Shown here: piece by piece, positions 27,494 through 27,610 of the stretch
How positions within the stretch are numbered: the stretch's first letter is position 1
How the letters are laid out: each line of letters starts with the position of its first letter
Source of the DNA: Escherichia phage S127 BCL3
Strand: one strand, 5' to 3'
Sequence record: OQ626344
DNA: 64,000 bases
Translations under genes and position numbers: made by a program
The notes under the pieces: generated by a model
What the model was told of the DNA's origin: nothing
The model's database searches: none
Seen by the model: the letters and a program-made list of their open reading frames with translations, nothing else

Positions 27494-27610
27494 ATGTCGT
27501 CAGGTATTTATAAAATTTGCAAGTGTGGTTGTCATTGCAATCTTCGTTGGTGCAAGGGACTGGACGATTTTATTTGGCATTGTCCTAAATGTGATGCGGA
27601 GTACTTATGA
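27494..27610 (+). CDS. 38-aa Cys-rich zinc-ribbon micro-protein
   Basis: MSSGIYKICKCGCHCNLRWCKGLDDFIWHCPKCDAEYL; AGGAGG RBS 6 nt upstream; stop overlaps nrdG ATG. Confidence 0.5.
   Translation: MSSGIYKICKCGCHCNLRWCKGLDDFIWHCPKCDAEYL

Follow-up and report, generated by a model that had tools for sequence, protein, structure and literature searches.

The stretch of DNA analyzed here (hereafter the window) comprises 64,000 nucleotides (nt) of Escherichia phage S127 BCL3 (sequence record OQ626344) and carries, on the + strand like all features of this gene cluster described below, the genes of an anaerobic (class III) ribonucleotide reductase (RNR). These are nrdD for the catalytic subunit (25307–27430; PF13597, E 2.8e-161; NF006732), with its own C-terminal zinc ribbon (CxxC..CPxC) and glycyl-radical domain, and nrdG for the radical S-adenosylmethionine activase (27607–28080; TIGR02491, E 5.7e-44; PF13353); a glutaredoxin gene (25032–25310; PF00462) overlaps the nrdD start. 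Between nrdD and nrdG lies a small open reading frame (ORF), termed micro-ORF in the following (27494–27610), which belongs to the family PHROG 20137 and encodes a micro-protein of 38 amino acids (aa), MSSGIYKICKCGCHCNLRWCKGLDDFIWHCPKCDAEYL. It starts with ATG at 27494, 6 nt downstream of the Shine-Dalgarno (SD) sequence AGGAGG (27482–27487), and ends with TGA at 27608–27610, overlapping the start codon of nrdG within ATGA (27607–27610). The SD sequence of nrdG (GGAG, 27598–27601) is located within codons 35–36 of the micro-ORF. An earlier note on this DNA, made from the sequence alone, had correctly described the start codon with the AGGAGG ahead of it and the stop/start overlap with nrdG, and had ascribed eight cysteines to the product. 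The peptide has seven, all invariant (C9, C11, C13, C15, C20, C30 and C33; pattern CxCxCxC-x4-C-x9-CxxC). The same note regarded the micro-ORF as unannotated, which holds for the ORF track with its cutoff of 60 aa but not for GenBank, where many relatives have the same ORF annotated.

The micro-ORF is a genuine coding gene under strong selection. Its frame is the sole frame open in all 22 homologous loci, while stops interrupt the other two frames of the + strand in 8/22 and 22/22 loci, respectively. Codon positions 1, 2 and 3 hold 9, 3 and 19 variable sites, respectively (28-codon core, 15 loci). A chance ORF or a wrongly chosen frame is ruled out by the 22 open loci together with this codon-position pattern. 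The ratio of nonsynonymous to synonymous differences (pN/pS) amounts to 0.04–0.2, with pS reaching 0.7–0.9 between the window and its most divergent relatives, i.e., synonymous sites are near saturation. Twenty of the 28 core residues are invariant in the 22-locus comparison. An alignment that includes the copy of podovirus vB_EcoP_ACG-C91 (see below) retains the seven cysteines, G12, N16-L17-R18-W19, D24, D25, I27, W28, P31, E36 and Y37 without change, and the database homologs share further invariant columns beyond these. The 28-aa core is 89–96 % identical where NrdG is only 55–56 % and the last 100 aa of NrdD are 72 % identical; the peptide is therefore more constrained than both of its neighbours. 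Conservation of the micro-ORF ahead of nrdG in related phages, named in the earlier note as a check, was thus found. Disrupted copies are rare: codon 9 is changed from TGC to TGA in phage nimi (L015, MN850626), a frameshift occurs near the C-terminus in phage Alma (P0003), and in P0010 the first 20 residues of the micro-protein are fused to an ORF116-like tail.

The type record of rV5 (DQ832317) has a 75-aa hypothetical protein ('ORF 114', 3936–4163 in locus L002) annotated across the micro-ORF in another frame. Its counterpart in the window is an 82-aa ORF (27462–27710), the frame of which is stopped in 8 of the 22 loci. Judged from these sequences, 'ORF 114' is probably a mis-annotation.

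The micro-ORF family is not new: it is already catalogued as PHROG 20137 (labelled 'ribonucleotide reductase'), to which the micro-protein matches with E 4.5e-29 (residues 1–38 on profile positions 1–38 of 38), and it is widely but inconsistently annotated. The nrdD–nrdG stretch is 99.6 % identical to that of Escherichia phage vB_EcoM-ECP26 and 92–99 % identical to that of about 120 rV5-like (Vequintavirus) records. With the peptide as query, tblastn found 120 full-length copies among phage records. Annotated counterparts in ECP26, the O177 phages, MiataMamis, Phage 203 and others are 90–97 % identical; these and the 38-aa 'hypothetical protein' entries of Vequintavirus genomes in GenBank represent the same family as the micro-protein, with no difference from it. 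The label is 'hypothetical protein' in ECP26, the O177 phages, Phage 203 and the phages of the Maffei collection, and 'ribonucleotide reductase' in RefSeq or pharokka-style records (e.g., MiataMamis). Relatives' records also contain the label 'putative anaerobic ribonucleoside-triphosphate reductase', and the micro-ORF is left out of the records of FV3, Murica and slur16. The micro-protein matched no Pfam family at E<=10 and yielded only noise with NCBIfam, and a hidden Markov model (HMM) of the family, run with all filters off, found no match in NrdD or NrdG at E<=50. Since neither an RNR family match nor similarity to NrdD or NrdG was obtained, the RNR label of PHROG 20137 and of GenBank appears to be borrowed from the neighbouring genes. 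About 18 'Campylobacter phage' records (MG0656xx) are about 92 % identical to rV5-like coliphages over the nrdD–nrdG region; the one inspected (MG065644, A147) is marked UNVERIFIED, and the host named in these records looks doubtful.

Searches for homologous proteins used the in-frame read-through from the preceding stop as query (43 aa, i.e., 5 extra N-terminal residues). When 1.84 billion cluster representatives were searched exhaustively with a profile, only the family itself and one further protein (P0012) were found. The latter, a low-complexity repeat protein of 1093 aa that lacks the Cys pattern, was discarded as a compositional false positive. The family members recovered were P0004, which is 53–54 aa long and has an N-terminal extension rich in Lys and Glu as well as a knuckle of the CxxCxCxC type, the 41-aa P0011, and the fusion P0010. 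Across the family, the micro-protein measures 36–54 aa. DNA-level scans, which are independent of gene calling, detected 3 loci in IMG/VR and 5 loci in metagenomes, each of the latter with the order nrdD–micro-ORF–nrdG on an rV5-like contig, and no locus in 185,579 bacterial and archaeal species genomes. Paralogs of the micro-ORF were not found in the window with the family HMM. The family is therefore an ORFan of Vequintavirus-type (rV5-like) phages with one transferred copy in ACG-C91.

Three types of nrdD–nrdG junction are represented among the rV5-like relatives. In type A (the window and most relatives), the nrdD stop is followed by a 63-nt spacer, the micro-ORF and the ATGA overlap with nrdG. 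In type B (rV5, Phage 203, phiWec193, A147 and two metagenome contigs), the micro-ORF is intact and ends with TAA, and about 390 bp with two ORFs, ORF115 and ORF116, separate it from nrdG. In this arrangement it is ORF116 (78 aa, PHROG 3249, function unknown) that nrdG overlaps. Compared with the allele of the window, that of type B reaches only 46 % identity in its first 130 residues and is near-identical over the final 27. In type C, freestanding homing-endonuclease genes are inserted between nrdD and the micro-ORF, and the overlap of micro-ORF and nrdG is retained in every such locus. Overall, this overlap reads ATGA in most loci and GTGA in L003 and L004, with the TAA stop in its place in the rV5-type loci. 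The coupling of micro-ORF translation to that of nrdG, proposed in the earlier note, is plausible given a 4-nt overlap conserved in most relatives. The signals for translation are likewise preserved: 'taggagg' shows no variation in the 11 loci with the micro-ORF directly after nrdD, SD-like GGAG/GAGGA also precedes the micro-ORF in endonuclease-containing loci and in ACG-C91, so that an SD sequence is present in every context, and 'cggagta', containing the SD sequence of nrdG, is kept in all loci.

The stop/start overlap and the burial of the nrdG SD sequence in the micro-ORF would also suit a purely cis-acting leader ORF, of which only the translation would matter (for coupling to nrdG) while the peptide itself would be functionless. 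This explanation is very improbable, however, in view of the pN/pS ratio and the invariance of most core residues, and because the micro-ORF stays intact where it is uncoupled from nrdG.

The endonuclease genes of type C encode either DUF723 combined with HNH_3, or treble-clef fingers of the DUF723/DUF4379 kind plus T5orf172. The insertions (588–4971 in L003, 45–1259 in L004, 63–1139 in L009 and 324–1451 in L017) occupy the spacer equivalent to about 27431–27493 of the window. In ECML-10, the insertion directly follows a hairpin of the spacer (see below), and the micro-ORF has its normal 38-aa form. In L003, L004, L007 and L009, the 5' part of the micro-ORF is replaced by an FKVK-CxxC variant, accompanied in the first three by a K/E-rich tail; this altered 5' end may represent a co-conversion tract. 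The nrdD gene of L003 is itself cut into three pieces by further endonuclease-type genes. The immediate vicinity of zinc-finger endonuclease genes (DUF723/DUF4379) 5' of the micro-ORF in several relatives, and the CxxC..CPxC ribbon of NrdD, could suggest that the micro-ORF is a relic, either a leftover endonuclease finger or a copy of the C-terminal zinc ribbon of NrdD. Such an origin is hardly credible and the least probable of the explanations considered here, since the family HMM with filters off found no match at E<=50 to NrdD or to the endonucleases of L003, L004 and L009 (that of ECML-10 was not included), since the micro-ORF lacks Pfam matches including those to PF05265 and PF14311 which these three endonucleases do match, and since it is present and conserved in loci without endonuclease.

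Three nrdG alleles occur among the rV5-like phages (27607–28080 in the window, 4502–4975 in L002 and 5162–5635 in L003), which are 46–54 % identical over the first 130 residues. In the last 27 residues, the allele of the window shares 96 % identity with that of rV5 and 67 % with that of L003. The breakpoints of the rV5-type allele are at the micro-ORF stop and inside nrdG, marking the junction as a mosaic recombination hotspot; the nrdD–nrdG spacer of rV5-like phages is thus a hotspot for homing-endonuclease insertion and allele exchange. Directly 3' of nrdG, a perfect (12/12) sigma-70 consensus promoter (TTGACA-18-TATAAT, 28084–28113) corresponds to promoter P118 of rV5. Downstream of it, a 37-aa Lys-rich ORF (MAKKALKKAYKKEIALELKKKHKREKKYHEDEEGVQQ, 28143–28256) equals ORF 118 of rV5; it is annotated in relatives and falls below 60 aa.

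The spacer between nrdD and the micro-ORF contains a sigma-70 promoter-like element (27434–27463) consisting of TTGACA, an 18-nt spacer and the extended -10 sequence TGgCATATT (10/12 matches, with TG), and a hairpin (GCCACAAGGATGTGGC, 27443–27458) is situated inside the spacer of this element. The longest invariant run in the 11-locus alignment (27433–27463, 31 nt) is exactly this promoter-like element, the next longest run measuring 18 nt. It is invariant in the 11 relatives, versus about 23 % variable columns in the flanking coding sequence, and no part of the alignment varies more than the remainder of the spacer. PhagePromoter predicted a promoter at the same place in the record of phage Gotham, and Rfam contained no known RNA family matching the spacer or the hairpin. 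From its sequence, the element 27433–27463 may act as promoter, terminator or operator.

Homologs of NrdG were found in 2,236 phage records. In many of the listed T4-like phages and in ICP1, nrdD and nrdG are both annotated under the NrdG match, suggesting that the two genes are adjacent there. The gene numbers of NrdG and NrdD in Certrevirus CB7 are consecutive (PMC7344957). In phi92, the nearest outgroup, nrdD leads directly into nrdG, and the loci of Felix O1-like phages, Maroon, KVP40 and Serratia BF have larger other genes 5' of nrdG and no Cys-rich mini-ORF. A mini-ORF ahead of nrdG was absent from all five outgroup junctions inspected (phi92, Felix O1-like, T4-like, KVP40, Serratia BF). 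Since nrdD abuts nrdG in phi92 and the other inspected outgroups lack a comparable ORF, the micro-ORF and its promoter-like spacer apparently represent a Vequintavirus-specific insertion. Compared with moron-type genes, a promoter-like element is kept and phi92 is without the insert, but a terminator is lacking, as the micro-ORF runs into nrdG, and the promoter is a predicted one only. Across phages, the micro-ORF is not co-distributed with nrdD and nrdG: it is confined to Vequintavirus-type phages and ACG-C91, a phage without RNR.

The podovirus vB_EcoP_ACG-C91 (Vectrevirus, SP6-like, 43.7 kb) encodes MSVFKICKCGCRCNLRWCKALDDVIWYCPKCNTEYL, which is 74 % identical to the micro-protein and matches PHROG 20137 with E 4.9e-23. 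Homology begins at the ATG and stops a few bases past the stop codon. The copy is placed between a DUF3310 'nucleotide kinase' gene and the gene for an ATP-dependent DNA ligase; its TGA overlaps the ATG of the latter (ATGA), and the conserved GGAG (within 'cggagta') stands just ahead of this ATG. The whole genome of ACG-C91 contains no annotated RNR gene, and tblastn with NrdD, NrdG and NrdB gave no match. Going by these comparisons, the micro-ORF was transferred to ACG-C91 independently of RNR genes. In K1E-type Vectreviruses, the same slot holds a 38-aa ORF of the same length class (MTCPNCGSEETEHVVMSDTYHFYFCHSCDTTIEEEEAV), a CxxC..CxxC ribbon with four cysteines which is unrelated in sequence to the ACG-C91 copy. 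The slot of vB_EcoP_B holds a Cys-free 57-aa ORF. The ORFs found in this slot (499–615 in L024, from K1E, and in L026; 499–672 in L025; the ACG-C91 copy) each overlap the ligase start by 4 nt, and the rV5-type ORF with seven cysteines occupies the Vectrevirus slot in ACG-C91 only. ACG-C91 has therefore swapped one mini zinc ribbon for another. The best PHROG match of the K1E-type ORF is weak (E 2.8e-4) and belongs to a family labelled 'DNA ligase'; this label was probably taken from the neighbouring gene.

An overlap with the downstream start in two unrelated contexts invites comparison with phage Mu, in which the com ORF overlaps its downstream gene. Like Com, the micro-protein is encoded by a small zinc-finger ORF of a phage directly upstream of another gene. 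Com is a zinc-finger translational activator of mom (PMC6483171). A corresponding activator cassette would imply that the peptide binds the 3' end of its own ORF's mRNA and opens the ribosome-binding site of the overlapping gene, and moving the ORF would then move regulator and target together. This would agree with the ORF-bounded transfer to ACG-C91, which includes the internal GGAG and the ATGA, and with the K1E-type replacement being again a mini zinc ribbon overlapping the ligase start. Nevertheless, this analogy appears improbable: (i) the micro-protein has no sequence match to Com, the Pfam search having returned nothing at E<=10 and hence not the Com family, (ii) only a weak consensus structure, neither stable nor conserved, was found over the SD sequence and start of nrdG (single-sequence z-score +0.54, consensus -8.6 kcal/mol, 1 of 19 pairs covarying), where a Com-like activator would be expected to have an inhibitory hairpin, and (iii) the rV5-type loci retain the micro-ORF with a TAA stop and no overlapping gene.

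The structure predicted for the micro-protein with AlphaFold2 (AF2; 9-sequence alignment) has a predicted local distance difference test (pLDDT) score of 63.3 and places strands at residues 16–20, 25–30 and 35–37 between the Cys knuckles. The zinc-ribbon knuckles, i.e., C9/C11(/C13/C15) and C30-P-K-C33, are invariant in all intact homologs. A Foldseek search of PDB gave a best, non-significant E of 1.5, with mostly zinc ribbons at the top of the list (the N-terminal ribbon of NUDIX, Rpb9, ZifS). A sequence search of PDB returned a 'small CPxCG-related zinc finger protein' and the zinc finger of PolD DP2 sharing WHCPKC, again at non-significant E values (0.08–0.12). A zinc-ribbon-like fold is thus a reasonable call from the model. 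The zinc ribbon read from the sequence in the earlier note agrees with the two Cys knuckles, the three-stranded AF2 model and the kind of protein found among the weak matches, none of which reached significance. With generic zinc-ribbon or small CPxCG micro-proteins (PDB 8q5b, Rpb9/TFIIS-type, ZifS 8yoz) the micro-protein shares the N-terminal knuckle, the C-terminal W-x-C-P-x-C knuckle, a predicted three-stranded sheet and a length below 60 aa. Unlike four-Cys ribbons, it possesses seven invariant cysteines, including the unusual CxCxCxC (or CxxCxCxC) run plus C20, which suggests a second metal site or a cluster beyond a single Cys4 site. With respect to rubredoxin, no Pfam match was obtained for the micro-protein, and its inter-knuckle spacing is 14–17 residues versus about 29 in rubredoxin.

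Seven invariant cysteines encoded beside the gene of an Fe-S enzyme raise the question of a dedicated accessory of class III RNR, which would bind NrdG or NrdD as a metal or Fe-S chaperone, as an electron donor to the [4Fe-4S] cluster of NrdG or as a regulator, in analogy to YfaE or NrdI of class I RNRs. RNR operons carry small redox partners. As with YfaE ferredoxin, NrdI flavodoxin and NrdH redoxin, a gene for a small protein is located in an RNR cluster, and the micro-protein is Cys-rich as metal and redox proteins often are; unlike these three, it shows no homology to them, and its co-occurrence with nrdDG is limited to one phage genus. Class III RNR is not known to have such a small redox partner. 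Every Vequintavirus-type locus seen has the micro-ORF between nrdD and nrdG, endonuclease insertions are always upstream of it and leave its junction with nrdG untouched, and the 4-nt overlap is retained with two different nrdG alleles. On the other side, the micro-ORF is missing from the five inspected outgroup junctions, and nrdG occurs in more than 2,000 other phage records; the ACG-C91 copy is coupled to a DNA ligase gene in a genome without RNR genes, and the rV5-type loci separate the micro-ORF from nrdG, which is coupled to ORF116 instead. Furthermore, the core remains about 90 % identical while NrdG falls to 55 %, i.e., there is no sign of co-variation, and homology to RNR components or to rubredoxin and ferredoxin families is lacking. 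On balance, we consider a dedicated RNR accessory rather unlikely. Correspondingly, the partner or regulator of NrdD/NrdG proposed in the earlier note, for which position was the sole ground, is not supported in view of the absence of the micro-ORF from the inspected outgroup junctions, its separation from nrdG in rV5-type loci and its presence in RNR-less ACG-C91. Only a small chance is likewise assigned to the narrower idea that a lineage-specific module with seven cysteines (binding Zn or an Fe-S cluster) aids or regulates NrdG or the zinc/glycyl-radical domain of NrdD, and would act on the host enzyme in the case of ACG-C91.

We favour, as moderately probable, a composite explanation in which an autonomous, promoter-equipped gene for a metal-binding micro-protein was inserted between nrdD and nrdG, became coupled to nrdG and acts in trans. 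The micro-gene, with its promoter-like element and its own SD sequence, would have entered between the two genes in an rV5-like ancestor. For the peptide, a compact, metal-binding fold resembling a zinc ribbon is most likely. Transcripts of the gene would arise from the internal promoter as well as through transcription continuing from nrdD. Since the micro-ORF of most relatives stops on the start codon of nrdG and the SD sequence of nrdG is within its last codons, its translation probably aids the loading of nrdG: ribosomes ending at the micro-ORF stop would be delivered in cis onto the nrdG start. A role in trans is likely because the peptide is under strong selection and survives both uncoupled from nrdG and in a phage without RNR; most likely it would serve as a metal-stabilised binding module with a target other than specifically the phage's own NrdD/NrdG. 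As both known contexts are gene clusters of nucleotide/DNA metabolism, the target may lie in this area of metabolism or in the host. The part of this explanation observed directly comprises the coding status, the selection, the distribution and the architecture of the junctions, whereas metal binding, coupling, promoter activity and the role in trans are deduced from them.

Several points weigh against the composite explanation. The synteny with nrdD and nrdG in every Vequintavirus-type locus examined persists despite several endonuclease insertions and three nrdG alleles, and such persistence would also be expected of a dedicated RNR accessory. The copy in ACG-C91 reflects a single event, and E. 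coli has its own NrdD and NrdG, so that a role directed at RNR is possible in this phage, too. The fold is called with low confidence (pLDDT 63), with neither a significant structural nor a significant sequence match. The promoter is a prediction only, and a weak terminator or attenuator following nrdD is an alternative role for the hairpin. The disruptions in nimi, Alma and P0010 indicate either that the gene is dispensable for propagation (rare losses) or that sequencing errors occurred. Finally, literature searches found nothing on the micro-ORF, no expression, metal-content or interaction data for any family member and no proteomic or transcriptomic data for non-structural proteins of Vequintavirus.

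With these points considered, the micro-gene is an ordinary kind of phage feature, i.e., a small conserved ORFan encoding a zinc-ribbon-like protein, with moderately interesting comparative behaviour. It illustrates cleanly how gene callers and the 60-aa ORF cutoff miss a very strongly selected phage protein of 38 aa, and it exposes two annotation problems, namely the RNR label of PHROG 20137, which appears borrowed, and 'ORF 114' of rV5, which is in the wrong frame. Should the micro-protein act on NrdG or NrdD after all, a small accessory of an anaerobic RNR would be described for the first time, as a class III counterpart of YfaE and NrdI, and phage control of the anaerobic supply of deoxynucleoside triphosphates would become testable.

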